The translations under genes were made by a program, and so were the position numbers. Under the pieces are notes generated by a model. That model searched no databases, had not been told where the DNA came from, and worked only from the letters and a program-made list of their open reading frames with translations. DNA of 20,000 bases from Psammoneis japonica (taxonomy: Eukaryota), in contig QPGO01000258.1 in NCBI GenBank assembly GCA_008632985.1, forward strand, positions 66,083-86,082. The letters run 5' to 3'. Shown one piece after another: positions 1 through 20,000 of the stretch. The number at the start of each line of letters is the position of its first letter. The stretch's first letter is position 1.

Positions 1-570
1 TGGTGGCAGTTGGAGCCTTCACATGGCTTTTTGCAGAGCCGGTGGTGTGTGGAGCCTTTGTGCTGCCAGCGCTGGTGGCGGCCGGTTTGAGCCTCTGCAG
101 CACTGCTGGACATGGAGCTGGCAGCCTTTGCACACCACTGAGCATGGAGCTGGTGGCAGTTGGAGCCTTTTGCTGTGGAGCTGGTGGTGTGCAGGGCCTT
201 TTTGCTGGCACTTGTGGTGGTTTTAGCCTTCACACTGCTGGGCACAGAGCTGGTGGCTTTGGAGCCTTTGCACCACTGGGCATGGAGCACAGAGTTGGCG
301 CTGTGGCAGTTGGAGCCTTGTTTGTGCCATTGGGAGCAGAGCTGGTGGCAGCTGGAGCCTTTTCACTGCTGGCGCTGGCAGTGGTTGGATTTTTTGCACT
401 GATGCTGATGCTGGCAGTGGCTGCAGCCTCTGGATTGCTGGCACTTGCTGTGTGGCTGGTTGAGGCCTTTGTGTGCTGCTGACACTGGCGGTGGTTGGAG
501 CCTTTGTGCTGCTGCTGGATGCAGAGCTGGTGGTGGTTGGAGCCTTTCTGTTGCTGGGTGGAGCTTTTGA
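1..570 (-). repeat. Degenerate 33-42 bp coding-type tandem repeat (KAPT / Thr-Pro-rich mucin-like), decayed; continues off the left edge
   Basis: Recurring GGTGGCAGTTGGAGCCTT-like units at about 12, 51, 122, 162, 261, 313, 354, 497 and 539. The minus strand reads KAPTAT/KAPTT in shifting frames (ORFs 223..702 and 230..814). Confidence 0.7.
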
Positions 571-2508
571 GCAGCAATTTGGCTGCAAATTGCAGGTTGC
601 TGTCATGCACACATTTCCCTTCTGCAGACATTCTGATGGCAAACACGTGCTCACAGGACATTGTTCTTGCACCTGCTGGAAATGATGCTGCAGTGAACAC
701 AAAACAGGAAAGCAGCTGCAAACTGTTGTGCAATTGTCCCATTTTGTGTTTCTTCATGCTGGGACAATGGATCTTCCCAACCTCCCAAAATTTGCACTTG
801 TGCCCAAAATGCAACTCTCTCCAACATCTGGACCCTCAACCCACAGTGCTCACCTGTCCCTGCACCTGCTTGCCAGCACTGCTGATTGCACTTAGAAGGT
901 TCATCATGCCAGTGCCAGCTCTGACAACATTTTTGAAATTTCCACACCATCCAGCCTCCCACTGTGACCAACACCCTGATGAAACCTGGCAGGCATGCAC
1001 CCCAAGTCATGGAAGGCTAAAAAAAGATTTTTTTGCAGACTTTGCATGTTTCAGGTGCAGCTGCAATCCAATGCTGAACTCAGCTTGGCTCTCAATTTGG
1101 CCACAATTCTGTCAATTGACCAGAAGCAATGTCAAAATGAAGTGCAAGGAGGGGTGTTGCTTGTGTTGTTTCTTCTTTTTGCCTTGGTGGTGCTTGCTTC
1201 CACATGATGTGTGTCATGGAACAATGAAGTTAAAAAAACTCATGGGAAAGTCAATGCAGAGCAAGTGTGTTCTTCAAGTGGCTGTGCACTGTGCCACTTC
1301 CATGCTCTTGCCATCTTGCACACATGCAAATGGACAGAGTCATTGTGTTTGGTGTGATCTGGGATCTTCAAGATGAAAAAATGTGCTGACTGTGGTTCGT
1401 GATTGGAGCAACAAAGGAGGACACATGGAAAAGCCGAGAGAGCAGAAGTGACAACATGGCAAATCCTGGTCAAAAAGAGGCCACAATGCAGCAAAACTTG
1501 GTGTGTCTCTGTCAAATGTGGGCCTTGGCAAAGCAGGCTTCCCTTGCAGCTAGAAACTCTGGGGCAACATGCACAAACTGTCTGATGTCAATGGCCGGCT
1601 TGCTTCAGCCAACTGGGCAGGATTCCGTGTGAGATGCTGGTGAGCGCAGCATGGAGTTCTGCATGTGAGCACATCCTTGAGAGCACAGAGTTGGGAAATT
1701 CAGCTGCTGCTTGGCAAAACAAATCTCTTGCCACCTTGCCAGCACAACACTTTCTTGTTGACATGTTGGCTCTTGGAAATGGCTGAACTCTGTTGTGCAC
1801 AGGGAAGATGTGGTGACAACAGCACAGTGTGGAGGTGACAAAGGTGGGGTGCTGGATGACTTCTTGAACTTTGCCAATCTCCTGAATGAAGTCACCACCA
1901 AGCCACAAGCTTGGTGTCACATTGAGGTTAACAGCCTCTCTGGGGATCTTTTGCAAAAGCTCGGTTTCCAATCAGGAGAGCTTGGGTGCCCAAGAAAAGA
2001 ATGTCCCTGCATTGTTTGTTGAAGCGACATGGCCAATTCAACCAAATCCTTCCAATTGCACCCGCCCCAACTTCGAGTGTCTGATCAGCTTTTTTTTCTT
2101 TTTTTTTTTCATTCAGAGGAGAAGCAGCCACGCTCAGTCTCACAAACAAATTGTCTTGCGACCATGCCATGAGAGAAACACTCAAATGGTGGATGCTTTT
2201 CAGAAGCATTCTTGACAAAAGAGAAGCTGCAATGGCAAGTCCAGTGCCTCTTGCTTGTTGAGGCCCAGCAACAACAACTGGCAGGGACGACATCACGTGA
2301 AACGATCAACTCCCGAATGAAATGCATGCACGTCAGATCTCACAATGATGATGATTGTTCATGATGGCCTCACTTCAGTCTTCGCATGAGCTCACTCTCT
2401 GCTCTGCTCTTGGCAGCTGCTCTCCAGCTCAGTCTGCCAGGTGCACTGTGCCGCATCTCTCCATCTCCAATTCGCGTGTCTCGCTTGATCCTCTCTGCTG
2501 TCTGTGTG

Positions 2509-2781
2509 ATGATTCGCTCTTTGCTCATGTCAGTCACTGTTGCCCTTTTTGGCTTGGCCCATGCTGGGACGAATCCTGAGGGACTGAAGTTTCCAGCCGC
2601 CAAGACACAGGAGGACGGGGTTGTGGAGTTTCCGTCAGGCCTTCTCTGCAAGGAACTTCGTGCTGGAACCGGTCCGTCGCCGAAGATTGACACGCCGTGC
2701 TTTTGCCACTGTGCAGGAACTTTGATCAATGGCACTGAATTTGACAGCTCTTACAAACGCGGGGAGCCGCTCACTTTTGCT
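2509..2781 (+). pseudogene. 5' fragment of a secreted FKBP-type peptidyl-prolyl isomerase (FkpA/Mip-like)
   Basis: Signal-like MIRSLLMSVTVALFGLAHAG, then GVVEFPSGLLCKELRAGTGPSP..CHCAGTLINGTEFDSSYKRGEPLTFA. Similarity stops before the VIxGW half. Conserved Tyr positions read Cys at 2647-2649 (TGC) and 2710-2712 (TGT). Confidence 0.88.
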
Positions 2782-3268
2782 CTGGAAAATGGGAGCTTTG
2801 CATCCCTTCTGAGTCAGGTTGCGGCGACCGTGGCGCTGGGGGGCAGATCCCAGGTGGTGCTGTTCTCGTCTTCACCTTAGAGCTTCTCAAAGTGACGCAA
2901 GACGGACAAGCGGAGTTCTAGAATGCCTCTTGCACCTGCGCGGCCCGCTCAAAACTTGGGTTTGCAGACCACTGCCGGCAGCGCTGTGCTCTAGAGAGAG
3001 GAAGGTCCTGCAGGGCTGTTTCGTCATTTGCACTGTCAGATTCATCAGCCATCAATTTTCGTCTTGTCCAATTGCAAGTCAACATTGCCGCTCTTCCATT
3101 GCGAAACTCATGTCTGCCACATTTCGCCCACCCGCATGTGCTTGTCTGCCAAGTGCCTCCAGGTGGTCATTTCCTGGTGCGTCAGCAACAATGCCCTGAG
3201 GGAAGCTGCCATCTCCAAAGCCATGTTGATGTCCAACCTGACAAAATTGCACATGTTGTCACACTCAC

Positions 3269-4860
3269 CCAATCATTCCATCACTTGTGCATTGAAACAT
3301 TCGACTGACAATCAGAGCGCCAACGCTGCCCAACCCTTTGTGCAAATGCTCTCAAGCAATGAATTCTTGTGGCCACATGGTGCAAAGTGCCACCTTTGCC
3401 AAAGGCCCCCGAGCCATTTGAAGCTGCTCAATTTCAACATCGGAGACTGAAATAGAAAACAAGTTGAGGATGCACAAAACAACACGTGAAAGCTCGGACA
3501 CATTGTCTCCACACTCGAAACAACAACACACCTCCCCCAACTGCTCGAAAAGGCCGAGCGGCAAAGTCCGCACCCGTGCTGTGCGTGTGCAACCAAACAG
3601 ATGCCGCAAGACCACCAGGCTGCGGTGAGTCGATTCCCACCCACCACAAATGTCGGCGTCGCAATCGTCAGGACAAACATGAGGCCACGGCGTGCCTGGT
3701 TCAAACTTGGACAGTGGGCTTTCTGCTTGTTCCAAATCATTTCGAAGGGTTGACAAGGCAACAGCAGAGAGCAACAATGTCAAATGAGCTGCTTCTTGGA
3801 GCAACAAGGAAGGGTCGAATTGCTCCATTGAAGCCATGCTCCGGACAACTGATCTGCCTTTGGAAAGTTGCAAAGCCGTTGTGCGACTCGCGTTGTTGTT
3901 AAGATTTTGGATTCGTCGCCTGCTGCAATGTGCTGCAGCAGTCTTCGAATGGGATCACCGACGGTCCTTTGCGGTTTCCACATTGGCGCATTGACACTCT
4001 GCGCTGGTCTCTGCATTGGAGCATTTGTGCTCTTTTTGGGCCCTTGCATTGACGGGGACTCGAGAGATTCGTTTCGGTCAGATGATTTTGCAACGATGAC
4101 TTGTGGAGGTCTCTGTTGTTGTGGCTGTCTTCACCGTGACGACAATCGCACTCCTCAAAAAGATTTCTTTGCACGATGCCACAGCGACAATTGAACATCA
4201 TGTCCCTGTGCACTTTCAATTTCGTCAAGGTGGTCTTCTAAATCTTGTCGTGTCATTTCATTCAATTGTTCCCGCTCCCGTTTGACAGAGGTTGCCTGTG
4301 GAAATTGCCCAAAGGATGGAGGCTGCGTGCATCTGTCTGACTGCAAATGAAATGCTGCAAGTTCCATGCCAACATCCAACCATTTGGAGTGCATTTGATG
4401 AACGACAGTCACTGCAGCAGACAAAGTGCTGTGAGCGATTGTGCCATGGGTTTTCCAATTGACGACCTCATGCTTGCCTGCTTCCCAATGCTGCAGCAAT
4501 GATGCACCCGACATCAGAGACACCAGACATCAGAGATGTCAAGAAGAGCGGCAAGATGAAAATGAATGTAAGTGCCTTCAACTTTCAATGCATTCCGAGT
4601 TCATTCTCAAGTCTGCACAACAAAAGCGCTGATGCCCAACACCTGCTCACGCGGCAATGAGAAAAGGAAGTTTTGAATGTCAGCAGAAAGGTGAAGGAGG
4701 CAATCAGTGCTCCCATTGGACAGGGGTGATCAAACACTCCATTCCCGCCGTCATGCAGGTCGAAGAAATGGAAAAAGACCGCTGCAGCCTTGAACAGTGC
4801 TGACCCATGCAGTCTCAACAGAGCTTGAAAGCCAAACACACCGCCTTGATGCTTTGTCAT
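3269..4860 (-). pseudogene. 3'-truncated bestrophin-like (UPF0187/RFP-TM type) gene with retained introns
   Basis: ATG at 4860. Motifs LRLHGSALFKA, DHP(C)PMGALIASFTFLLTFKTSFS, (H)WEA|VTVVHQMHSKW, PSLLLQEAAHL..LSAVALSTLRND, AARPFRAVGG|VSDVEI..ARGPLAKVALCTMW.QEFI, SDGMIG. In-frame introns inferred at 4491-4650, 4412-4477 and 3447-3531, with a further donor at 3268. Contains frameshifts and stops. Family call is from memory of diatom homologues. Confidence 0.72.
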
Positions 4861-4959
4861 TGTTGCTGTGGAGTGGGCTTGCACTCTAGAACGATTGTGC
4901 AAATGTGCAAAATGCAGAGGAGAAAGCGCTGTCATTTGCCATTTTCATCATTCCTGCTG

Positions 4960-7086
4960 CGGCTTCTGCGGCAGAGTGTTGGCTTCTAATCCGTCCAAGA
5001 GCTGCGCAGCACCTCGTTTCATTGCAATGCTGCAATCACCGTCGCGGACAACAGTGTCGCATTTGATCAAGAGCGGCTCCAACTCCACCAGTGCCTCAGC
5101 CGCAGCTGCAACCATTGCAGAGGCGGTTGCTTCAAAATTGTCAAGCTCGACGGGCGGCAACTCACTGGTTTCCGCTGTGGCATCAACCGAAACTTCGGGA
5201 AGCTCCGTCAAGGATGGATGAGCGCCATTTTTGTTCCATGCATCACACGGCGACCACAACAAAGCTGTGGTGTTGGCATTGAGCAGCTCCATGACGTTTG
5301 ATGAGGACAGATTCAAGATTGTGACGGACACACCATGCACATCAAATGAAGTCATGCAGCTGCCCACAAAAATGCAAGTCACTGTGCAGCCATGCTGCAT
5401 TTCCAGACAGCCCAAAATGGAGTTGGTCAAGATTGACATTTCAAAGTTAGATGTCCCACCCAAATTGTTGACAAGGACACAGAGATCGTCTCCTTTTTCG
5501 AACATGGGAACGACTGCTTCCAATTCATCGACACACCCACACTTGTGAATCGCACCAACCATCTCCTTTGCAAGTTCCTTGCTTGTCAAAAGCGCGGACT
5601 GCTTCACCCCAGCTTCGCCATGAATTCCGAGGCCAACTTCAATCATGTCATCATCGTCCAGATGATCTTTGACTGCCACTGCACCAGGCACCGTGACTGC
5701 ATCAAGCGCCGCACCCAACGTTCCCATGTGTTTTGCAGTCAGTGCAGCCAGGTTTGCCGCGCCCTGCAAAGATTTCCCTTCGGCAGCAGCTGCTCCTGCA
5801 ATCTTGTGAACAAGAATGGCTCTGGAAATGCCTTGAGCTCCAGGGATGCCCTTGGTTCTCTCCAAGGCCGCATCGTCGGCTGCGACCGCCACTTGGCAGG
5901 AAAGACGGGTTCCAGCCCCAGGTGGGACTTTTTGTGACATTTGCCCCGCAGAATTCCACGTGCGAGCTCTGCAGTTTGTGCTCTGGTTGATGGACATGTT
6001 CACTTTCGACATGAAATGAACAGTCAATTTTGCAGCACATGCACCTCTGTTCGCACTCGAAGTTTTAGATGACACGCCTGCCCTGCGCCATTCTCAAGAC
6101 ACTCGAGAATGGCGCAGAAGAAAAAAATGTCAAAAGTTGTTGAGTGGATCACCCGACAATTGCACTGTAAAATGATGCAAAATTTCGCCAAAATCACGCA
6201 GAAATGTGCATGCGCGACATGCGACGCGCATTCAAAAAACTGTCGATGTCACAGTTCAGCAGGGCGAGGTCCCACCCAGACCTGGAGCGCGTCTGGCTCG
6301 ACCACATGCCGCTCCAAAGTTCAAACGGTCACCAGCGCAGTTCTTCACCACTGGCAGAATGGGGCTTGTTTTCCCACATGAAGCGGCGCGAATTGCAGCC
6401 AAGGCAGCGGCGACAGAGGGAGACGCAAAGATTCCTCCTGGAGTGGCTCCGCTGAGCATGCCGTCGCCTGTCCATCCTGCATGACTCGGCTCATGTCCGC
6501 CGCCGCCACTGAGAATCTGAGCACCCGTTCCAGCCTTCAAGTTGCTCTTGAGCACAACATGATGATTTTTCAATTTCGCGAGGCGAGCGAGTCAGATGTT
6601 GCAATGGCAGGCCAGCAACAAATTCGTCGACAGTGTCGGCTGGATCGCTGGTGATCTTTTTCGGCTTGGGCGATGCGACGCTTTTCTGCTGTGCGAGTTG
6701 AGCCAAACAACACCTGGTCATTTTGCGTGAGGGTCAATCACTGCTGGGAAGACTCACGCGGATGTTCTCAGCAAGAAGCTCCTTTGCACAAGGGCCGTCG
6801 CTCAAGAGCATGGGACAAAAGCTGCGGCCCAACCAACCCGCTGCACGACCTGTCTTGCAAGTCGCAGCCGAGACGGCAAGTTCTTTGAGAATTGCACTCG
6901 CATTGCCCCGCTTGTCAACGACCATGGTGTCGTTGCACACTTTGTTGGAGCTCTTGAAGATGTGCGCTCGAGTGCGGAACAGGAGCCCGCTTGTTGGCGG
7001 GTCATCGCCGAGTGCATTTTGCTCTTGTCGGAACGGCCGGTCAGATGCAAGAATCAGCTCAATGGGAATCAGTTCAACAGAATTCG
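4960..7086 (-). pseudogene. Dihydroxyacetone kinase / triokinase (DAK1 + start of DAK2 domain), frameshifted, interrupted and 3'-truncated, with an upstream non-DAK exon
   Basis: KKITSDPADTVDEFVAGL; SGGGGHEPSHAG..GML..IFASPS; VKN(C)AGDRLNFG; ADD..LVHKIAGAAA; GLGIHGEAG; LVNNLGGTS; DGDC. Frameshift near 6575 and an insertion at 5911-6286. The DAK2 SMGGTSG motif is absent. Intron 6689-6757 joins an upstream exon in frame. Confidence 0.9.
5911..6286. mobile_element. Candidate MITE-like insertion in the DAK pseudogene
   Basis: 376-bp non-DAK block splitting the DAK1 domain. Ends are imperfect 18-bp inverted repeats (TCCAGCCCCAGGTGGGAC vs revcomp TCCAGGTCTGGGTGGGAC, 14/18). A central 13-bp stem hairpin lies at 6083-6117. 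No clear TSD. Confidence 0.55.
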
Positions 7087-7165
7087 CTGGCGATTAGAGT
7101 GCACACAATGTGATAGAAAGACCCGCCATTTTGACAAGCAGAAAGCATTCATTGGCTTCCACAGT

Positions 7166-8197
7166 CAGAAAACGCATCTGCGGCATGGCAAGTGCGGCAA
7201 CAACGGCGGCATGGAAATCTGATTGGACAAACGACGTCAGCTAGCTATGAACTTTGTTCTTCACAACAAGTGATGTTGACATCATTATTGCCCCCCCAGC
7301 ACCTGCCAGCATCGCGCAGGCAGACCCCATGCTGTACAAGTATGGTAGTACGAGTGGTAGCACTCACTCTACACTGGATGAGACGCATCACGTCAAGTAC
7401 TGAAGCCGCACGTAGAATTGTACGTGGAATGAGATGTGGTTTTTTGTGCAAGTCGCCATGGCGGTGTGTGGTTGTTTTGGACAACTTCTATCGACTTTGT
7501 GACTATAGAAGTAGGATCAATCGATAATATGAAGTAGTTATGATATGTGTAGAGAAGGAAATGGTAACGCTTCGCGTACTTCTTTCCAAAATGGACCTGT
7601 TGTATTGCAAGAATTTTCAGGTCTTTTCATGCATCGCAGAAAGCCATGCATAAGGTCCCTAAACTAGATCTCTATGACACAGAAACTACCGTACAGAGTA
7701 ATTTAGATATGGCGGATTGAACGGTGTTATTTGTAAGTTAAATGGTTTTAGAGTAGGTAGACTAAATGGCCCGAGAAGGACGGTGCAAAAATTTCTACTT
7801 GAAAGTTGCTGAAATTGTCCCATAAGAGGGTCGCACATGCATTGAACAAAAAGAGAAACAACACACACATACTAACAAAAATGCTGCGGTTCTAATGGTG
7901 TTATTTTTATGCTCACCAGTCCGAAAGTTGCCGCTGTCATGGGCGGTTCGTGCTGTTTGTGTATCATGATGTTGTGTTGTCTTGCTGAGTCTCCAAGGAC
8001 TCTTGTGAATGTTTCTGTTGAAGTGGAGCGCGAATCGCCACGGCCGGGCGGCGGGGCGGATGGTGGGCGGGGTAAGGATGATGTCATCATTACTTATTGT
8101 GAACAACAAGGTTCTTAGCTGACGTCGTTTATCCAATCAGATTTCCATACCGCCGTTATGACCGCACTTACCATACCGCGGATCGATACGTTTTCTG
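7166..8197. mobile_element. Non-autonomous TIR DNA transposon, Mutator (MULE)-like, 1032 bp
   Basis: TIRs at 7166-7243 and 8116-8197, starting CAGAAAACG. Perfect 9-bp target-site duplication TTCCACAGT at 7157-7165 and 8198-8206. No transposase ORF. A 9-bp TSD with long TIRs is typical of the Mutator superfamily. Confidence 0.88.
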
Positions 8198-8224
8198 TTC
8201 CACAGTTTGCCTGCCGTACACCGC

Positions 8225-8403
8225 GAGGAATTTTGTGTCTCGGAGGAATTTTGTATCTCGGAGGAATTTTGTGTCTCGGAGGAATTTTGTATCTCGGAGG
8301 AATTTTGTATCTCGGAGGAATTTTGGGTCTCCGAGACACAAAATTCCTCCGAGACACAAAATTCCTCCGAGATACAAAATTCCTCCGAGACACAAAATTC
8401 CTC
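8225..8403. repeat. Palindromic array of 18-bp repeats: 6 forward + 4 inverted copies
   Basis: GAGGAATTTTGTRTCTCG at 8225, 8243, 8261, 8279, 8297 and 8315 (last copy variant). CGAGAYACAAAATTCCTC at 8332, 8350, 8368 and 8386. Symmetry centre about 8332. Confidence 0.97.
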
Positions 8404-8424
8404 CGTCCTCCGTGAACCGATACC

Positions 8425-9118
8425 GAGATGACGCAGCGGCGACCCATGCTCGGCGTTGTTTGAGCTATTCTTCGTCGTTTTCGTTCATTAAAGACACGGA
8501 TATTACTTTTAGGAGGTCGACTTATTAGATGAGGTCCTTGGTTTGGCGAGAAACGGTGTTGTGGTTGTGTAGAAATCAAAAGATGGGTCTTTTTGCTTTT
8601 GTCAGCCATTTCTGAGCGGCAAAACCCATGCTCGGATGTTTAATCGCTCATTTCACTTCATCTGATGACTATCTTTGCTGGTATCGACTGACCATAGTCA
8701 CGAAAAGTTTTCCATGTCTTGGGTATGCTGTGAGTGGGGGCTGTGTCGAGAAACATCGTTCTCTCGTATCGACAAGAAACACCAAAAAGCATGGAATTGA
8801 CACGATCCATACTTTGATGGTTATTCGTTCAATACACCTTTTCTGTTGTGTACCTTTGCCTGGATCTCTTTGTTATAGATACGAAAATCATCTCCTGTCT
8901 TGTGTATGTTGTCTGTTTGATTTGTGGAGAGAAATGTCGGTCACACTCGTGTGGTCTCATGTCGGCATTTTGTGATTATCGCTGACCCATGCTTTGATGT
9001 TTATCCGTTCATTTCGTCTCTTTACTCACACTTCTTAGATTAAATCATTACTTTATAGCTACAAAAAGATTAGTCTGTCTTGGACATGCCTTCGGTGTGG
9101 TCTGTAAAGCGCAAGTGT
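8425..9118. repeat. Left arm of a long inverted repeat, composed of diverged ~180-bp units
   Basis: Reverse complement of 9720-10410 over about 690 bp, with scattered substitutions and long identical tracts (e.g. about 8652-8785). Motif (G/A)AYCCATRCT at 8441, 8623, 8804 and 8984. Confidence 0.95.
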
Positions 9119-9719
9119 CATTCACAACACAACTGCGACATGCACCGACGCCTCTCCTCGCTTTCCGACAATACATTTTCCCGTTTGTCTAATCTATTTG
9201 GACACTAATTGAGTCATATAATAGAATGATAATAGAATGGTAATACCAAGCATGTTCTTCTTTTATCTGAAGCTATTGTTTCCTTGTTCTCCATGGTAGC
9301 ATCATTCTGGATTCTCCTCGGCTGGTCGTGCATCCGTGAGTCGAATGAAGTCCGTAATCCTCATTTTGTTCAACATCAGCTCGTTCACTAGAAGAATCAT
9401 GAGCAGAGCCGGAGGAGTCGCTTGATGGGCTGCAAGTGCTTTTGATTTTGATATTGACAAAAGGACCCCGATTCTCCTCGTCAGCACTAGCAGAACTCGC
9501 AGGAACGGTGTCGGTGCTTTCCTCGGCGGACGTGTCCGCAACAGCCTTTGCTTGGCATTTCTTGGTGGATCTATTGTGCTTCCTTGTATTTTGGTTGAAC
9601 TCTTCCTCTTCTTTTCATGATTCCTCTGCTTCTCGTTGCTTTGGGACAGCATGCGCTTGCGGGGAGCTTTATGACTGAAGCTTGCGCATCGCTTGTGTTG
9701 ATGTTGGACGGTGTGCTCC

Positions 9720-10410
9720 ACATTGCTCTTCACAGACCCCACCAAAGGCAAATACAAGACAGTATAATCTTTTCGTAGCTAAAAAGAAGAGATTCGATTA
9801 AAGAAGTGTGAGTAAAGAGACGAAATGAATGAATAAGCATCAAAGTATGGGTCGGTGTCAGTAAAAAAAAAGACACGGGACCACACGAGTGTGACCGACA
9901 TTTCTCTCCACAAAACAAACAGACAACATACACAAGACAGGAGATGATTTTAATATCTATAATAAAGAGATAACAGCAATGGTACACAACAGAGGAGGTG
10001 TATTGAACGAATAACCATCCAAGTATGGATCGTGTCAATTCCATGTGTTTTGGTGTTTCTTGTCGATACGAGAGAACGATGTTTCTCGACACAGCCCCCA
10101 CTCACAGCATACCCAAGACATGGAAAACTTTTCGTGACTATGGTCAGTCGATACCAGCAAAGATAGTCATCAGATGAAGTGAAAGGAACGAATAAAGATC
10201 AAAGTATGGGTTTTGCCGCTCAGAAATGGCTGACAAAAGCAAAAAGACCCATCTTTCGATTTCTACACAACCACAACACCGTTTCTCGCCAAACCAAGGA
10301 CCTCATCTAACAAGTCGACCTCCTAAAAGTAATATCCGTGTCTTCAATGAATGAAAACGATTAAGAATAGCTCAAACAAGGCCGAGTATGGGTCGGCGCA
10401 GCGTCATCTC
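9720..10410. repeat. Right arm of the long inverted repeat, directly upstream of the kinase gene
   Basis: Mirrors 8425-9118. Motif AGTATGG(G/A)T ends near 9853, 10031, 10212 and 10394. The arm ends about 165 bp before the kinase ATG. Confidence 0.95.
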
Positions 10411-10573
10411 CAAAAACACAACTTGAAACTTCACGTTCCCAACAAAAAGTCTCTCCGCGCTAAAAAAATAAATCCCACGGATCGCGCGAAAAGCAATAAC
10501 ACGGGTTGCGATTGGCGCCGCTGCTGCACCTACCTGCCGAAGGGAAAAGGGAACAAAGCCAACAGCCAAGACG

Positions 10574-13500
10574 ATGGCACCAGCCACACGCAACACTACA
10601 AAGACTCCAAGGAAGAGCAACGCTCGCAGTCGTTCTCATCATGCCCCAGCGACGACTCTCCGGGCAGTGACAGCGCAAGACTTTGTCAGCAGTCCAAATG
10701 ATGCAGAGCTGGCGCTGCTTCCCGCTGCGGTTGCTCGTGCCTTGACCGACCTTGCTTTCGACGCAGCTTCTACGGCGACACCGCGCAGGAAACGACGCAG
10801 CACTGGTGCTGCTGGTACGTCCAAGACCATCGCCTTGAATGGTTTGACTGAACAAAAGCTCCGAGCCTTCATCAACAGTGCGTCCAAGCTTGATGGTCCT
10901 TTGGTTGCAGCATTGGAGCGTCTAGCGGAAGAGGAAGGTATCCATGGGATGCTCGAAGATTGCGATGTCAAGAAGACGGCGGTCTTTCGTGACTGGCACA
11001 CTGCCTACGTGACAGACCCGGAAAGCGAACAGGCGGAACAATACCGTCGTTTTGAGCTGATGCAGTTTGCAACCAAGAACATGAAACGCGTCAAAGGACG
11101 CGTAGCCAATACTTTTGCGCCTATCGGAAGCAGGGAATGCACCACGCAAGAACTTTCCCGTTATGCCACATCCCTTGTGATGCTCCTACGCGACGCTGCC
11201 TTACTCCCTCGCGAAAATGTCGACTCGGACACCGATGGTTCGTGCGACGGCAGTTGCCGTGAAGAACTCTTGTGCCGAGTGGCTCGCTTCATTATGTTTA
11301 ATGGCATCTTGATCAGCGACTTCGAGAACTTTGACACTCACCACGGTCGACGCCGGCCTAGTCTGTACACACAAGTCTTCATCCAAAGTGGGCTAGCCTT
11401 GCCGGAAGGCCTGGATTACTCAGAAATTGACGACAAGGATGACCAGTGCGATCCGTTTGACCTGGACTTCAAGCAAAAGTGCATCAGTCAGCTCTTGATG
11501 GTTCTCTTTGGTGGCAATGACTGTGCCACGCCTTTTGTCAAGCGCGTGTATTCCTATTTCAAAAAGGTCTGGGAGCTGCAGCACTCTAGCAAGCTTAGCT
11601 CACGCATGGCAGGAGCAACTCTTTTCGAACAGCGCAGCATGTTTATACATCAATTTCTCCTCTGGGGTAGCGAGGAGGAGGACGATACCTTGGGGAATAC
11701 ATCTTCAGCAAATGTGCCCTCGATCGATGAGTCGATTGCGTCGTTGGTTGCTTCGTCGCTGTCGTTTGATACCGATGACCATCCATCGGCGAATGCGTCG
11801 ATTGGTGGGGTTACGGCGGTGTCGTTAAGCCCAGCCTCGACACGCAGTATTGTGCACAGTAGCAGTGGTACTAGCGATGGTTGCAAGACCCCTGGAAGTT
11901 CCAACGGCAATAGAACTCCTCTTGCCATGCTCAAGGGCGCCATTGAAGAGCTTGTTGCGGATCCGTTCAACAAGAAAAAGTATTCTGAGGTCGCCGTGTG
12001 TGCTTCCAAATGCTATCCCCAGCGCAGCTTGCTCGTGGGATACGAGTTTCCGGACCCCGCCAGTCCAGCCGCCAAAGAAACTAGCAAGTTGCTTCGAGCA
12101 GCATGTCCGGCGACAAAGGTGGAGGAGCCGGTCCGTTTGAGCAAGGCCGAGAGCACGTTTGTGGATCAACTGCACAATCTCAAAAAGACGGACAAGAACC
12201 TTCCTGATATTCAGTTCATTCGCACCCTATTTCCACTCATTCAGAGTGCTGACCAGTTCTACAACACTGGGGGCATTCTCGAAAAACGGCTTGTCCAGTC
12301 CCACATCAAGGCGCTTCCAGTGGATTCCAGTATCAGTAATTTTGCTGATACTTTTGCTCCGTCCGCCGCGCAGGCCGCATCAGGAGGGGACGAGAATGAA
12401 TATGATGCTGTGGAAAACACCGACGAATTAAGCGACGACGACGATATCGAAACAGCGAATGCCTTACCAGTCGCTCCAACGCACACCCCTGCTGGTGTGC
12501 TAGGCAATCTGGAAGTTTTCAACTTCATTAAATCCTGCAAGGAGGACCGTCGCGAGGAAGTAAAGGATGGCAAAGTGGTTTACGAAAACGTCTTTTCCCC
12601 GGAAGTCCAGGCATTGTTGGGAAAAAGCTATCAAAAACCGGGGAAGAGCGAGGAGGAGCAGGCGTGCGCTGGATATCGCATGAACCAGGATGACCTAAAG
12701 CTTGTCCGCTTCGTCGATCACGGAGCCATGGGTTTTGTCTTTATGGCCAAGCACCAGTCTGGCAAGCTGGTGGTGGTCAAGTATGAGTGGTTTCATCCGT
12801 GGGATGTTGGCGACTATCTCATTCGAGTTCTCGTAAACCATTCCCTGGTCAACTACAGCCCTCACGTCATGACTCTTTCTGACTGGTTTGTTGTTATGTG
12901 CGATGGCACAGCGTTGAAGCAGAAGATTAGGGGTGGAGATAGACTCGAACGCAAGTGTATGATGATTGCTCTTGTCGCTGAGTGGTGCCCCGGTGGGAGC
13001 TTCAAAGCTGCTGTCAAGAAGCGTATCGAGCTTGGATCCCTCAGCATGGGCTGGGTTCTAGAACACGCAATTCAGCTTACCCAGGCGCTTCGCTGCTTCA
13101 AGCGACACAATATTGTCCACCGTGATCTGAAGCCAGCCAATATTCTGATCGGGTCTGACGGTAACGTGAAGATTGCCGACTTTGGCCTTGTTCGCAAGTC
13201 TACTCGGGGTCAAGAGAGTGGCACCCGTGGAGCTGGAACTCCTGGATTCCGCAACCATGCTGGGGTAGTGTATGGCAAGTACGACTCTAACACGGATGTT
13301 ACTGCCCTTGGTTACACCCTCCGCGAACTGTTTTTACAAGGAGACGAAGAGGGCTCAACCAAGGAAATGACGGCTGACGAGGTGGCTGGCGCAGAGGCTG
13401 CAAAGCAAGAGGCATTCACACCGCAGCAAATGGAAGAGGTCATCTCGAATAGTGAAAGCAACAAGGAAGCCCTGAAAGCGTTCCATGAGCTCATTCAAAG

Positions 13501-13597
13501 CATAATCGTCGAAAGTGATGCAACCCGCATCTCAGTGGAGGAGCTTGAGCGCGCACTCGAAAAAATTCGTGAGACGGTGTTGGAGAGCGCTGAATAG
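10574..13597 (+). CDS. 1007-aa intronless protein with a C-terminal eukaryotic protein kinase domain (about 12690-13570) and an unassigned ~700-aa N-terminal region
   Basis: Uninterrupted ATG..TAG ORF with normal TA/CG content and Tyr codons. Kinase motifs: DHGAMGFVF (G-loop), VVVK, HRDLKPANIL (13118), KIADFG (13178), GTPGF, DVTALG. Confidence 0.93.
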   Translation: MAPATRNTTKTPRKSNARSRSHHAPATTLRAVTAQDFVSSPNDAELALLPAAVARALTDLAFDAASTATPRRKRRSTGAAGTSKTIALNGLTEQKLRAFINSASKLDGPLVAALERLAEEEGIHGMLEDCDVKKTAVFRDWHTAYVTDPESEQAEQYRRFELMQFATKNMKRVKGRVANTFAPIGSRECTTQELSRYATSLVMLLRDAALLPRENVDSDTDGSCDGSCREELLCRVARFIMFNGILISDFENFDTHHGRRRPSLYTQVFIQSGLALPEGLDYSEIDDKDDQCDPFDLDFKQKCISQLLMVLFGGNDCATPFVKRVYSYFKKVWELQHSSKLSSRMAGATLFEQRSMFIHQFLLWGSEEEDDTLGNTSSANVPSIDESIASLVASSLSFDTDDHPSANASIGGVTAVSLSPASTRSIVHSSSGTSDGCKTPGSSNGNRTPLAMLKGAIEELVADPFNKKKYSEVAVCASKCYPQRSLLVGYEFPDPASPAAKETSKLLRAACPATKVEEPVRLSKAESTFVDQLHNLKKTDKNLPDIQFIRTLFPLIQSADQFYNTGGILEKRLVQSHIKALPVDSSISNFADTFAPSAAQAASGGDENEYDAVENTDELSDDDDIETANALPVAPTHTPAGVLGNLEVFNFIKSCKEDRREEVKDGKVVYENVFSPEVQALLGKSYQKPGKSEEEQACAGYRMNQDDLKLVRFVDHGAMGFVFMAKHQSGKLVVVKYEWFHPWDVGDYLIRVLVNHSLVNYSPHVMTLSDWFVVMCDGTALKQKIRGGDRLERKCMMIALVAEWCPGGSFKAAVKKRIELGSLSMGWVLEHAIQLTQALRCFKRHNIVHRDLKPANILIGSDGNVKIADFGLVRKSTRGQESGTRGAGTPGFRNHAGVVYGKYDSNTDVTALGYTLRELFLQGDEEGSTKEMTADEVAGAEAAKQEAFTPQQMEEVISNSESNKEALKAFHELIQSIIVESDATRISVEELERALEKIRETVLESAE

Positions 13598-14934
13598 TCG
13601 GGTTGGTCTCGGTTGTTTGGTCTTTCTTGTTTTGATGAATAGTGAGGAAGGAGTCGGACTCGACGCCATCGCATTCGTAAATCGGTGTTGATCCTCCTGG
13701 CTATCAGTCGTTCCTTTTCCGTCATCTGTGGGACTTGGAGGACGACAACTAGACGGGATTTCTTAGAACAAATACACAAATACAGAGTAGAAAAAGGGTT
13801 CTTCTCATCATGTTACATTCTTTAGGCTCTTGTTGACCATCGTTAGTAGGAGAGTGCGTGTGCGTAACTCTGTTGCAGACGATCGACACCTTGGCAAGGT
13901 TGGGCTAAGGCATGCTCTCAAGAATCTACTCTCAGACGACAACAGAGGATCGTCTTCAGTCTCTAGCTAGAGTGTCCAACGAAAGTAGAGGCAGCACCAA
14001 ATTCAATGTGGGCCAGCAGCGCGTCAGACTTTGAGAACTCAAATTCTAGGTGGCAAACGACGGCAGGAGCACACCCTGCTTGGCAACGCACAGCAGGCGC
14101 TCAGCAATGCAACGAGTCCATCAACAAGAAGTCTCCTCAGAGGATGGTTCAAGTGGCACACTCTCTTGTGGCAACAAGATCTCATCATTGTGTTGCTGAT
14201 CTTTTGTTTCTGGGTTGGACGACTGAAGTGCTCATTGCTGGAACTGATTGTGCAACAAGCACGTGACAGAACTCTGGCAACTCAGGCATTTTTGACACAC
14301 TCAGTTGTTCCACAGGGCATTGAAGCACAGTGTGGCACTTTGGTCAGTGCTTTCCTGATGCAGGTTCAACTCCTGTGCATGTCACACTGCTGGACACGCA
14401 GGATCTCTGTCAGTGCAATGCTGAGTCACAGAGCACAGTGGGCTGTTCTTTCAGAGCCACTGTGGATTGCTTCTGACAACTGCTGAAGTCAAAGACAGCT
14501 GGCAATGACTGTGGAAGGTGCTGTTTGTGCAACACAGTCCTTTGCAGCACTTGGGCTTTGCGGGCAGGTGGGAAAGAAGAAAACAGTGCGGTGCTTCTTC
14601 TTGACATTTCAACAACAACAAACTCTCTTGAAGCTGTCTCAAGAAGGAGCAGGTCTGAAAGCAGTTTTAATCACAGACACCGTCTCTTTGACACGTGCAT
14701 TGTCAAATCCATGAACTGCCATTGATGTGAAGTGAGGAAAGAAAGGATGGAGCCGACCCTCACAGAAGATTCTTTGCCGAAATGGAAAACAAACAACAAG
14801 ATGATGAGATCAATCCTGGGGGCAGTGACAACATTGACATTGAGGTTGGCATTGACAAATTGGGAAGAACACCGCAGCTCACATGGTTGCGGGATCCATT
14901 CGAAGCAGCAGTGGTTGCGACATGGACTTTTCAA

Positions 14935-14994
14935 TTGTTGACTCCATGCTGAATTCAGCCAAGTTTGTTGACTCCACACTGAGTTCAGCTGAGT
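14935..14994. repeat. Two tandem 30-bp copies
   Basis: TTGTTGACTCCATGCTGAATTCAGCCAAGT / TTGTTGACTCCACACTGAGTTCAGCTGAGT. Confidence 0.8.
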
Positions 14995-17900
14995 CAGAGT
15001 CTGAAGACTTGGTCAAGACCCAGATGATCAAGATGAATCTGCACAGTCACCAACACCTAAGACGTTGCCCAACCACACCAAATCTTGACCCATCCCTGAG
15101 TCCCACACAGCATCCACAGGCTTCTTTGCTCCCACTGCAACCAATGCAAACAGCTGTTGCCAGTTCCCAGAAAGTTTGGGCTCTGCCTTTTTGAGAAGTG
15201 TTCTCAATCCCACAGTGAGCGCATTCAACAACACACACCTGCCACACACACCTCCGGCCACAGAAACTTCACATGAAACATCTCATTTTGGCAAATGCAC
15301 TTGATCGAAGAGTGCCTTGGGGCATCTTCATTCTGCTTTGGAGCATCTTGAAGAATGAGATTTGTTGGATCAACAAACCAAGGGTGTTGTCAGAGATTTG
15401 GTTGATGTTGGAGATGAAGAGCTTGGAATTGATGTGATGTGAACAAATGCTGCACTCTTGTTCTTGTCCTCCCTTGATGGGACAGGCAATCTCATTGTCA
15501 CTGCTGTCATCATTGGATGATGCAGAAGCAGTGGCAGTCCTTCTGGTCCATCAGGAAATTCCCTTCCACCAAATGAAAATCCAATGTTGCAGCCATCGTT
15601 GCTTTGCTCCACACAAGTGCCACTGTTTTGCTTCTCCTGTTGTTGCTCTTTGGGTTGCTTGTCCTCTGTGGCTGTTCTTGCTGCGTTCTCTTTCTTGGAA
15701 TGGCATTCAAACTTGTTGTGGGCTTCAACAATGTTGATCACATGGTCACAGGTTTTTGTGGCTTTTTTTTTTTGCAGTGCCGGCACAGAAGTCATCATTG
15801 GAGCTGGAATCGCCTGCACCTTTTGAGCTGAATCCTCCCCAACTCCCATCACACTGACACCCAGTTGACACACATGCACAAAAGACAATGACACTTGAGC
15901 AATGCCAGTTGGAGGCAACACAGAGGGAATGAGTCATCTTGCTGGAGATTTGATGCTGAAAGGTTGCTTTGCATTCTTTGGTGTTGGTGTGGATCAAAAG
16001 AACAGACTGGAGCAAGGCACAGTGAATCACAGCTTGTCTTGAAACAGCTGCTGGCGTGGGCATTGTGACAATTGCATCCAAACCTGGCAGGTGCAACACA
16101 CCAGCACATTTGTCTTGAATGGCATGTCCATGTGCATGTTTTGAAATGCACTTGGAACACACAGCAACCAGAGCTGAACAAAAGTTGGGGAAAGGAGCAA
16201 ACTGGCCAAAAATTGACTGTGTTCAGTGTGCAAACATGGGGTCAGAGATTCATTGGCTTCTTCTTTGTCATCTGGGGTGGTTGCTGCAGACACATCAGTG
16301 CACATTGCAGCTGCAGGGTGACCATGTGACACAGAGTGGTGTGTGCTGCCAAGCTGAGCACCCCAGACTGGCTTTGAGCCAAGCCCAGGGCACCAGCTGC
16401 CAGCTCCCTCTGCCCCACCCCCCCAGCAGGTGCTCTCCTCTTGCAATGTGGTTTGGCTGCTCAAGCTGCACCACACACTGACTCAAAGGCTGCACTTGGG
16501 AATGGCTGGGGAGAACAAAAACTTGCAAGCTTGGCTGCTTGCTTCAGACCTTTTGCTGGCAAGCAAAAGCTTGTGAGAAAAGACCAGCGGGTGCTGCAGC
16601 ACCATGAGCAGAGGAGAGTTGTCACCACTGGTGCATTTCAGGTCAAGTGCTTGGCATGCTCAATGACTCCTGGACCCAACCTTGCCAAGATCTTCTTCAC
16701 TTTGAACCACACAAGCAGGGGCAGAGGTTTGTTGGCTCTTTGTCATCCAGGGTGGCTGTGCCTCCAAGATGCTGCTCTGCTCTCTTTGCTGAGGGAGGCT
16801 CCCAGCTGCTCATGGGTCATGTGCACTTTGGGGGCATGTCGCTTGATTTGCAAATTGTGTCATGCTCCTTGCCCACAACTGTGTGGTGTGCCCAATGTGC
16901 CAGTGCATTGGCTGGGCACGTGACAAACTTTCATGCTTGTCTGTGGCTGGCAAAATGCCATTGAGCTTCCCACTTGCTTTTTTGAATGCTGCTGTCAACA
17001 TGTCACAAGTCAAGCCCAGCTCACTGTGAGAAGCACTTCCAGTGGGCTGTTGCTTGGGAGCATTTGTGGTTGTCTCACATTGTGTGTTGGCCAGCAAAAA
17101 TGGGTGCTCTCCTGTTTGCAGCAACAAGCAAGGTTGTGTGTCAATGATGAGGGGGAAAGCCTCTCTTGCTGTCACCACCACACAACAAAACAATTTCTCT
17201 GGTTGCATCTCCATCAAGGGGTTGACAGAGCCAAATTGGCTCTGTTGCTTTTCACAGGTGTGCTGCCAAGGCAAACTGAGGGCAGGCAACTCATGCATTT
17301 GCACATTGAACAGGCAGAGGCAATTTTGGACATGAGAGAAATGGCATGTTCGAAAGCATTTTCTGCTTGTCATTCAAACCATTTTGCAACTGCCACAGCA
17401 TGGGGCACCAACAGGAGCTCCTGTCATCTCTGGCTTTGGCCAGGGATCTTTGCAGTTGTGCTGACCCTCAAGCCAGCACTCTTGTCTGAGAGGGGCAGTG
17501 GTGTGTGGGGTTGGGCAGTCCAGCCAGCTTGCTTGTGCTCTCTTGATGGCACAAAGTGCTCTCATGGCAGCAAGGTGGGAGCAACTTTTGTGAGTTGTGA
17601 GCTGGGCTGGTGCTCTGGAGGTCTAAGTGCACCACTGGGAAGCTGTGCAGGAAGAGCTCAGTGCTGCCACCATGGTCAGAATCATGGGCCTGTTGCCCCA
17701 TGTCTTGTGATTCTGGGAGTGCTCACAACTCCCAGGTTTGATGTGTCAACTGGCAGCTTGGAAAACAGCTTGAATTGCAACACCTGACATTTGGGTGGTG
17801 CTGTTGTTCCCAAGAGCTGGGGGGAGGGAACAGGCAGAGAAAGGTTTTGCAGGTGCTGCTTTGTCAATGGTTGGGGACACAGCTTGGACTCTGGACTTTC

Positions 17901-19337
17901 TCAGGATGGAAGCAGCAGGTGCAGCAACAGAAGATGCCTTTGTGACAGAGGAGTGGCTGATGGACAAAGCCTGAGCACAGAGAACTGTCCACTCCAGCTC
18001 AAGCAAGCAACACGCTCCAAAGGCGATGCTGCATGTGTGTTCATGCACCAACATGCTTCAAGCTGAAAGTCATGAAAAATGCCATCAGCCTCTCAAACAG
18101 CTGCAGTGTGGGGGTCAAACCACAAATGTGCCATTTGAGAGTCCAAGGCTCAAAACAAGAGTGGCACATCAACTCTCTTCTCATTTTGTGCATTCAAGAA
18201 CCCCTTGTTCTTCACAAGTCTTTTGCACATGCTTGCTTCTGTTGATTCAAGGGCAAAGAGAGGAGTCACTTCTTGTTTCTTTCTTCCAGTTTTGGTTGTC
18301 GGGCAGTGTTGCAATCTTCATTTTCACAATTTGGAAATTGGCAAAATCAATCACTGCTTGTTTGTCTGTTTGCCATTTTGTGTCTCTGCAGCAAAAAGCA
18401 CTGCAAGACCACAGTCCTTAAAAAATTGTTTTGCCACAAGCTCCAAATTGTTTCACCAATTTTGGTGCTTTGAAACATGTTGAGCATTCACTCAACTCAG
18501 CTGAGTCCCAGTTTTTGGTAGATGCAAAATCACGAATGTCAAACAAATGGCTGATTTCAACATGAAGCTCCCCAAGTTTAACCCCCTTGTGAACATGCAC
18601 TTCAGAGCTTGTGGCCATGATGCACAAAAGCATGCTTTTGTTGTTGTCATGTGTCAAGAAAAGCTGACACATCAAAGTTCAGCACAAGGGTGGAGTGCAA
18701 ATTAATTTGTGCATTCATTGCCTGGATTGCACCAATGATGTGACAGCAAAAAGTGACAGTGAATCTACACTCACAATCAATTGACTTTTCTGCATTGCTT
18801 AGAATTTGAAATCTGACCACTGAGCATTTGGCTCTCTTTGTGCCAAAGTGGAAATGACACTTGACAATTTGCACTGTTCATTTGGCTCAAAGTCAAATGA
18901 AGCATTTGGGTCATCACAGGCTCATTGTCACATTCAGCCACAATCATGAAGTCTTTGCCAATGCCTGCTTTGCAACTTTGAGCAATCCCTCTGTCACAAA
19001 TTCAAAAATGTGTTTTGTCAAAGTGAAGATCAACAAAATCACATTGTTGCCCTGATGAATGAATGCAAGTTGGGGTCAAGAAATCCAGGCGTCAAGAAAT
19101 CCATGACAGCTGGCTGAGAGATGGATCATTCTTCAAAAGGGAGAGATCAGGAGTGTTTCATTTCTCTTCTTGTTGTGCCACTCAGAGCCTGCTGTCTGCT
19201 GCACAGGTTGGTGCCCCAAAAGGATGAAACAATGATGTCAACAAGAAGACAAGCAGTCATGCATGAAGAAAGATGAGTGCAGCCAGAGAAGTTGTTTCTT
19301 GCCATGTGTGTGAGCACAGCAAATGTGAGCACGAGCC

Positions 19338-19884
19338 CAAAACAAAACCCAAAATCTGTGTTTAAGGTGCTGCTGCACTTCTGCCCTGCAACTCCAGCAT
19401 CAAGCTGGCCCACACCCCCAGCGCACAATCAGTGTGGCAGGGGCACACAGCAACTGGCTAACAACATCAACACTGCTGCCAGGTGAAGCAATTGGCAACA
19501 GTGCACATGCCTCTTGCAGCAAGACATTTGGCTTCTCAAATGCTGGACTTGAACATGGGGCAAACCATGGTCAACTAATTTTGCAGTCTGTGTGTTGAGT
19601 GAGTCGAGTCAAAACAAAACCCAACATCCATTTTTAAGGTGCTGTTGCACTTCCGCCCAGCAACTCTGGCAACAAGCTGGCCCACACCCCCAGCACACAT
19701 GTGTGCGACAGGGGCATGCAGCAATCAGCCTAGACCAGCATCACCATCAGGTGATGCCACACCAAAACAACTGGCAATTGCACAAGCGCCCCTTGCTGTC
19801 AGCCTCTTCACTTCCTTCATGCTGGATTTGAACATGGGTCTTGCCATTTCCAACCAATTGTGCAGTCTGTGAGTTGAGTGAGTC
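19338..19884. repeat. Diverged tandem duplication of a ~270-bp unit
   Basis: Copies at 19338-19605 and 19610-19884 share CAAAACAAAACCCAA, TTTAAGGTGCTG, CAAGCTGGCCCACACCCCCAGC, ATGCTGGAYTTGAACATGGG and TGCAGTCTGTG.GTTGAGTGAGTC. Confidence 0.85.
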
Positions 19885-20000
19885 ATGTGTTCATCCATGT
19901 GGGCACCTCAAACTTTGAAGCACGGTGAACTGCAGCCAAGTTGTCAAGGCACAGGTCGCTTCCCAGAGGAAAGCCCGCAAGACAATGTTCCATCACCCAA

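Follow-up and report, generated by a model that had tools for sequence, protein, structure and literature searches.

We analysed a 20,000-nucleotide stretch of contig QPGO01000258.1 (hereafter the window), in which a ~1-kb non-autonomous DNA transposon lies across the border between DNA almost free of the dinucleotide TpA and DNA of normal composition. At six positions where the right terminal inverted repeat of this transposon reads TA, the left repeat, which lies in the TpA-free DNA, reads CA. We consider it highly probable that a TpA-specific process mutated the left end after the transposon had inserted, the right end preserving the state before mutagenesis and the left end displaying the state after it.

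Comparison of the two transposon ends

An earlier note on this DNA had claimed that all six RTA sites (R, purine; Y, pyrimidine) became RCA in the left repeat, with the single CTA spared. The repeat sequences that it quoted are exact, the left one corresponding letter for letter to positions 7166–7243 and the right one to the reverse complement of 8116–8197. Its count also holds, since T in the right repeat is matched by C in the left repeat at 7176, 7184, 7189, 7201, 7210, and 7228, and the CTA at 7241–7243 is identical in both repeats. The remaining differences are CG (right) versus TG (left) at 7179, TC versus CA at 7198–7199, and a 4-nt indel. The chance of six of the nine substitutions landing on the six RTA thymines among 78 sites is 3.3e-7. 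The signature extends into the subterminal repeat, with ATA changed to ACA at 7267 and TAC changed to TGC at 7290, and the first intact RTA is found at 7338. As a side observation, the TC/CA difference (7198–7199/8160–8161) could represent a seventh RTA to RCA change, starting from an ancestral GTAATA, combined with an independent A to C change in the right arm.

A gap-affine alignment puts the first of the six sites (7176) within the indel. Its placement in the earlier note is backed by sequencing run X1, in which the family ends lacking the 4 nt finish in ACGTTTTCTG and read T-A at this site (loose end 8183, 4 contigs, agreement 0.69). In run X1, a depth of 419 of 1779 carries the gap of 4 nt at 8181, and the indel is therefore a family polymorphism and not a product of the mutator; by depth, the 4 extra nt of the right repeat are common to about three quarters of the family ends.

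The arms of a neighbouring foldback element (8425–8963/9872–10410) served as a control. Over 538 aligned sites they show 30 differences, 14 of which are transversions, and the five differences between TA and CA or TG are split 3:2 by direction, giving no directional TA signature.

An independent inverted-repeat search recovered arms at 7176–7243/8116–8183 (88% complementary) and a subterminal pair at 7243–7297/8066–8120 (82% complementary). The inverted ends consist of a terminal repeat of 78–82 nt and a subterminal part, together reaching ~130 nt, and the terminal-repeat core occurs twice in the window against 0 occurrences expected by chance. The element is flanked by two perfectly identical copies of TTCCACAGT, which at a given position would match by chance with a probability of 4^-9. 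No Pfam match was found in the open reading frames (ORFs) of the element itself. Its depth in run X1 is ~900, compared with ~62 for unique sequence, the value on which all copy estimates are based, which suggests ~14 genomic copies. Exact-pattern scans with the repeat core gave 0 loci in metagenome contigs and 0 loci in viral contigs. In the left end, the two GCGGTATGG sub-repeats have both become GCGGCATGG, a change that probably immobilised this copy.

The left repeat forms the last 80–125 bp of the left TpA-free domain, and the edge of that domain lies inside the element, between 7290 and 7338. To the right, the TA content is normal from the right repeat onwards, through the second duplication copy and into the sequence that follows it (GTAC is intact at 8217), and therefore the edge is truly inside the element. 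Gene conversion and the late insertion of a normal island were also considered, and were ruled out by this TA-normal sequence of the right duplication copy and beyond.

The mutagenesis had been dated after insertion in the earlier note on the ground that the target-site duplication is intact. Mutation after insertion is still the most economical reading, but the reason given for it does not stand, because the duplication holds no TA or CG and so cannot record the mutator. Its identity on both sides does mean that both ends belong to one insertion, and an assembly chimera or ectopic recombination is thereby ruled out.

Composition of the window

The window is divided into two TpA-free domains and a normal-dinucleotide island between them (Table 1). 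TA occurs 39 times in 13.3 kb (13,301 nt) of TpA-free DNA versus 257 times in the 6.7-kb island. The TpA/ApT ratio in the TpA-free domains is 0–0.1 in nearly all intervals (maximum 0.31), the (CpA+TpG)/(ApC+GpT) ratio is ~1.5–2.4, and rho_TpA, in the strand-symmetric form computed here, is <=0.08 in all 13 TpA-free 1-kb intervals. Relative to the island, the TpA-free DNA has lost 35.5 TA and 33.1 CG per kb and has gained 71.8 CA+TG per kb. The dinucleotide indices of the flank to the right of the element (8200–14000) are ordinary. At the edge of the right domain, the last intact GTAG is found at 13986 and the following TA is a CTAG at 14047. The domain edges are located to ~50–90 bp and are sharp to <100 bp.

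Contigs assembled from k-mers of run X1 match TA-free stretches with 0 differences at 699–1773, 5416–5930, and 16647–17212, and a single contig spans 10395–16282, across the edge at 13990, with 15 differences. In this comparison, 40 of 1020 variant rows were listed. No RNA run is among those listed as containing this DNA, and most of the TpA-free domains are without cover in run X2; neither point was taken as evidence on expression. By depth in run X1, the estimated copy number is 2–5 for 1–5336, one for 14008–16008, and 12–16 for 8672–10672. The targets do not appear to be simply repeats: the single-copy stretch 14008–16008 is TA-free and the neighbouring foldback element with its 12–16 copies is untouched.

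CpG depletion was found in only part of the TpA-free DNA. CpG observed/expected is 0.5–0.97 in 2000–7290 although TA is gone, and it falls to 0–0.2, on top of the loss of TpA, in 1–2000 and from ~14250 to 20000, which points to two layers that differ in age or in cause. The same separation is seen within the left repeat, where one of eight CpGs is changed (seven kept) versus all six RTA sites. The TpA process is independent of the slower decay of CpG to TpG or CpA. The CpG loss may reflect the usual decay of methylated CpG, in parts that are older and derived from transposons, and transposons of diatoms are described as CpG-methylated (PMC9998398).

Direction of the changes

The earlier note had set the direction as T to C on the plus strand (TA to CA). 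This was borne out by the continuity of the left repeat with its flank, by a pseudogene, by a paralog contig, and by the de novo changes reported for the alga Bigelowiella natans (see below). The left repeat passes without a break into a 7.3-kb flank nearly free of TpA, and this flank contains the pseudogene, a decayed triokinase/dihydroxyacetone kinase (Dak1) gene. No Tyr occurs in its 381 aa, versus a mean of ~8 per protein in 14 homologues, and a Tyr that is invariant in 14/14 homologues is Cys in the pseudogene. Of its ten conserved Arg, six have been replaced, two by His, two by Cys, one by Gln, and one by Gly, and 66 of 208 conserved columns are altered. The best named homologues, with 48–55% identity, come from Seminavis robusta, Nitzschia inconspicua, Pseudo-nitzschia, Fragilaria crotonensis, and Mayamaea, all of them diatoms; no B. 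natans protein was found among the 120 homologues listed.

The same flank also holds the remnant of an FKBP-type isomerase gene. Among its 26 listed differences from the window, a paralog contig that covers this remnant at 2478–3022 (depth of 58 in run X1 and 471 in run X2) has TA against CA or TG of the window in 11 cases and the reverse in none, and at three more places it has CG against CA. A high-copy element inserted in the flank (5904–6293) gives a similar picture, its family consensus (loose end 6230) having TA twice and CG once where the copy in the window has CA, TG, and CA. Together with the T-A at the first site in the family ends of the transposon, the comparisons number four, are independent, and agree in every case: TA is the older state and CA or TG is derived.

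Sequence context and strand

The TA dinucleotides that survive in the TpA-free DNA are strongly dependent on context. No RTAY site survives versus 157 expected, whereas 5 RTAR (123 expected), 4 YTAY (131 expected), and 30 YTAR sites (99 expected) do, the expected counts being those of the island scaled to the TpA-free length. All four classes could be accounted for by a per-strand model with a survival of ~0.06 for R-T-A and ~0.55 for Y-T-A, corresponding to a ~4–5-fold higher rate at R-T-A, which is T-A-Y on the other strand, than at YTA. Thus the motif claimed in the earlier note, RTA to RCA with CTA spared, persists as a window-wide preference in the survivor counts. It does not hold as an absolute rule, since 7 of the 11 paralog differences lie off the preferred route.

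The same note had read the GTAT sites as a weak hint of strand-processive action. Locally this is what we see, all seven changes between 7176 and 7267 being T to C on the plus strand, including 3/3 GTAT sites, and the sites at 7246 (CTAT) and 7286 (TTAT), which are preferred only from the other strand, being intact. However, a runs test of RCA versus TGY products over the domains found no strand clustering in excess of the control (z of +1.45 and -2.38 in the domains versus -4.75 in the island). Strand-processive action is therefore a local hint only, and elsewhere its trace could have been lost as repeated rounds led to saturation.

Comparison with known systems

The closest known case is that of B. 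natans. In mutation-accumulation lines of this alga, two integrated viral regions mutate ~1000x faster than the rest of the genome, and 230 of 231 mutations in them are A to G or T to C, all at TpA (Mettrop et al., bioRxiv 10.64898/2026.01.13.699255). The same preprint describes 124 further clusters depleted in TpA and rich in CpA+TpG, proposes an ADAT2-like DNA adenine deaminase, and reads the process as genome defence (10.64898/2026.01.13.699255). Full-text literature searches for TpA hypermutation, in diatoms or otherwise, gave this preprint alone.

As in B. natans, the T:A to C:G changes in the window are limited to TpA, and the product is CpA or TpG depending on the strand. The two cut-offs that define the B. 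natans clusters are both passed, with our own rho formula, by 11 of the 13 TpA-free 1-kb intervals, including 3001–6000 and 14001–20000. Unlike in B. natans, the loss of TpA is near total here (rho_TpA <=0.08 versus 0.45 in a B. natans viral region, as given in the preprint), and the targets seen are remnants of transposons and pseudogene copies of cellular genes. The mutated domains contain the FKBP and Dak pseudogene copies, a high-copy miniature inverted-repeat transposable element (MITE), and a weak SWIM match, and a Pfam scan of 127 ORFs found no viral domain. The words 'trinucleotide', 'context', 'CpG', and 'purine' do not occur in the main text of the preprint, whose supplementary tables may list contexts. 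The R-T-A/T-A-Y preference, the co-loss of CpG, and a sharp edge within a transposon are found here and are absent from that main text. To judge from one decayed gene, the Dak pseudogene with its diatom homologues, the window appears to represent a second lineage with TpA hypermutation. Long exons without introns are likewise more in keeping with a diatom.

Repeat-induced point mutation (RIP) of ascomycete fungi likewise produces transitions at a specific dinucleotide, destroys repeated or foreign DNA in situ, can spill over into adjacent sequence, and leaves distinct compositional domains. In contrast to the present case, RIP converts CpA to TpA and leaves AT-rich, TpA-rich DNA, whereas here TpA is destroyed and GC content rises. 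RIP itself, which was our first thought from the CA/TA pattern, was ruled out by the dinucleotide indices, as its signature of high TpA/ApT and low (CpA+TpG)/(ApC+GpT) was not found in the affected domains.

The changes also resemble those made by ADAR, TadA, and ADAT2/3, which are A to G with a preferred 5' U or T, and the natural TadA site, U-A-C-G, resembles T-A-Y. These enzymes differ in acting on RNA, whereas the changes here are in genomic DNA and form multi-kb tracts that include non-retrotransposed genes. ADAR hyper-editing via an RNA copy was rejected, the tract being continuous over 7 kb across gene remnants and intergenic DNA and ending in a duplication-flanked DNA transposon.

The transposon has the features of MITEs of the Mutator-like element (MULE) type, namely a 9-bp duplication, within the 9–11 bp expected, long inverted repeats with sub-repeats, no coding capacity, and ~14 copies. 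No MULE or DBD_Tnp_Mut Pfam match was found in the ORFs scanned, and no autonomous partner was found in the window. By anatomy the element is Mutator-like, an assignment made solely from the length of its duplication and its long repeats. Elsewhere in the window, a sub-threshold SWIM zinc-finger match in the right TpA-free domain may be a remnant of a Mutator-type transposase.

Proposed mechanism and alternative explanations

We propose that the ~1-kb non-autonomous transposon inserted at TTCCACAGT, and that a TpA-specific T:A to C:G conversion would later have acted across the DNA to the left of it, the tract entering the element for ~125–170 bp and then stopping. The strand that is struck would decide whether TpA becomes CpA or TpG, R-T-A would be preferred, and near saturation would be reached inside sharp-edged domains. 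Such a process would be of the same kind as the de novo TpA hypermutation in B. natans. The likeliest candidate enzyme would be a TadA/ADAT2-type polynucleotide adenine deaminase that acts on one DNA strand at T-A-Y, an identification to which we give even chances. The choice of domains could depend, for example, on a silent-chromatin mark or an RNA guide.

Several observations weigh against this reading. No deaminase gene was found in the window. Within the mutated tract, the TAY sites at 7246 and 7286 are intact, and the GTAA/GTGA difference at 7272 in the subterminal repeat lies outside the motif. The RTA preference is not visible in the paralog sample, in which four differences follow the preferred route, five are at YTAR, and two are contrary to it. 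The 6.7-kb island from which the expected counts were scaled may differ from the original composition of the mutated DNA. Finally, what the left repeat looks like across the family is read from a single loose-end consensus, and run X1 may come from the source sample of the window itself, in which case it is not independent with respect to a read-level artefact.

A different chemistry, in which it is the thymine of R-T-A that is altered (a TET/JBP-type dioxygenase might oxidise it, for example) and then mispairs with G, is unlikely but deserves consideration. Oxidised thymines can mispair with G. Moreover, sequence cannot separate A to G on one strand from T to C on the other, and R-T-A is as good a description of the motif as T-A-Y. 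Against this, the edited A invariably follows a T, in keeping with the U33-A34 context of tRNA adenosine deaminases, and the data obtained here hold nothing in favour of a modified thymine. The sole published proposal, that of the B. natans preprint, invokes an adenine deaminase and names an ADAT2-like candidate.

We regard it as very improbable that the asymmetry is ancestral to the family, that is, that a master copy already had a CA-type left end and a TA-type right end and that one of its copies landed beside a TA-free domain. Every RTA of the left end, and none of the right end, would then have to mimic the flank by coincidence, and the mimicry would have to halt ~125–170 bp inside the element. 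The T-A at the first site in the family ends without the 4-nt insert also speaks against this explanation, and so does the finding that both ends of the ~14 copies lie on the TA-type right repeat (depth 1779 at 8181 versus 62).

The reverse direction, in which a RIP-like change of CpA to TpA struck the right repeat and the interior of the element and the left repeat is the original, has almost nothing to recommend it. The interior (7251–8000) does have a GC content of 0.40–0.43, TpA/ApT of 0.90–0.92, and (CpA+TpG)/(ApC+GpT) of 1.10–1.12, which are near commonly used RIP thresholds. The abnormal compartment is nevertheless the TA-free one, with its extreme TpA indices over 13 kb, while the indices of 8200–14000 are ordinary, CA and TG persist throughout the right repeat, and the outgroup tests give TA as ancestral.

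An artefact, either an assembly join of two loci at the repeat or a modified base causing systematic base-calling errors, is hardly credible, even though the sequencing platform is not on record and run X1 may be the source of the window: the identical 9-bp duplication speaks against a chimera, independent k-mer contigs at a depth of ~62 agree fully with the TA-free sequence and run across the edge at 13990, the same run gives normal TA in the paralog of the same gene, miscalled palindromic TA should yield competing CA and TG forms (none is listed in the single-copy stretch 14008–16008), and the Dak gene shows CpG-type and frame damage that amounts to ordinary pseudogene decay.

Neighbouring features

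The coordinates of the features are collected in Table 1. The high-copy element that provided one of the outgroup comparisons is ~390 bp long, has imperfect 26-nt inverted ends, and interrupts the Dak pseudogene, between positions 107 and 110 of the Dak1 profile. Its depth of 12,000–34,000 versus 62 for unique sequence indicates ~200–500 copies, and it offers a second before/after control.

To the right of the transposon, the island contains a perfect-looking palindrome built of 18-nt tandem units (GAGGAATTTTGTRTCTCG and its complement), the arms being 99% complementary and the units alternating between GTAT and GTGT. It is followed by the foldback element, which has 539-nt arms with 94% complementarity and a further 147-nt pair, is present in ~12–16 copies, and is untouched by the TpA process. 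Next to it lies an intron-free ORF encoding 1007 aa with a C-terminal protein kinase domain, which is single-copy and TA-normal. The long N-terminal part of the predicted protein is without relatives, and no close relative of the protein was found (best database match, E 3e-10); a separate cluster look-up gave generic kinase clusters only. Degenerate tandem repeats of 21/42 nt with abundant TG and GG occupy the leftmost part of the window, within DNA that is both TA-free and CpG-free.

Table 1 Features of the 20,000-nucleotide window (positions are those of the window)
Feature	Position	Strand	Basis or remarks
Left TpA-free domain	1..7290		rho_TpA 0.02–0.07 per kb; extends past the left end of the window; CpG also depleted in 1–2000
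Degenerate tandem repeats	1..600
FKBP-type isomerase remnant	2365..2877	+	In TA-free domain; Pfam FKBP_C, E 1.7e-7; unmutated paralog in the same run
Triokinase/dihydroxyacetone kinase (Dak1) pseudogene	4951..6591 (pieces 6259–6591, 4951–6093)	-	Pfam Dak1, E 3e-47 and 2e-24
High-copy element within Dak pseudogene	5904..6293		Depth in run X1
Target-site duplication, left copy, 9 bp, TTCCACAGT	7157..7165		Read directly
Non-autonomous DNA transposon, MITE-like, 1032 bp	7166..8197	+	Inverted repeats; no Pfam match in ORFs; depth
Left terminal inverted repeat, mutated state	7166..7243	+	Six RTA to RCA, one CG to TG
Left subterminal inverted repeat	7244..7297	+	Final stretch with the signature
Normal-dinucleotide island	7300..13989		Contains transposon interior and right end, palindromic 18-nt array, foldback element, kinase ORF
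Right subterminal inverted repeat	8066..8115	-	Inverted-repeat search
Right terminal inverted repeat, unmutated TA state	8116..8197	-	Has 4 extra nt
Target-site duplication, right copy, 9 bp, TTCCACAGT	8198..8206		Read directly
Palindrome of 18-nt units	8225..8405
Foldback element	8425..10410
Protein kinase ORF	10574..13597	+	Pfam E 1.6e-23
Right TpA-free domain	13990..20000		CpG also depleted from ~14250
SWIM zinc-finger match, sub-threshold	18650..18877	-	E 0.0043

Implications

Targeted A:T hypermutation of cellular DNA is nearly unknown, and the literature searches turned up a single preprint on an alga, from 2026, that describes such a process. In the window its signature is found in an apparently different major lineage, and as an end state instead of an ongoing change. 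The half-mutated transposon gives the ancestral sequence base for base and, with it, the direction of change, the sequence context, the independence from CpG decay, and a mapped edge. While the kind of mutator was described in 2026, the context, the separation from CpG loss, and the domain edge are added here.

We put forward, tentatively and as the less probable outcome, a wider interpretation: the B. natans mutator may also operate in a diatom-like stramenopile, where it would saturate multi-kb domains and would strike duplicated cellular genes as well as transposons, with T-A-Y being read like the anticodon-loop site of TadA/ADAT enzymes. The mutator could then be an old and widespread deaminase-based genome defence of the SAR (stramenopiles, alveolates, and Rhizaria) group, a mirror image of RIP. 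If this is true and general, each transposon family in such genomes would provide natural before/after pairs from which the rules, edges, and timing of the process and its candidate enzymes could be studied.

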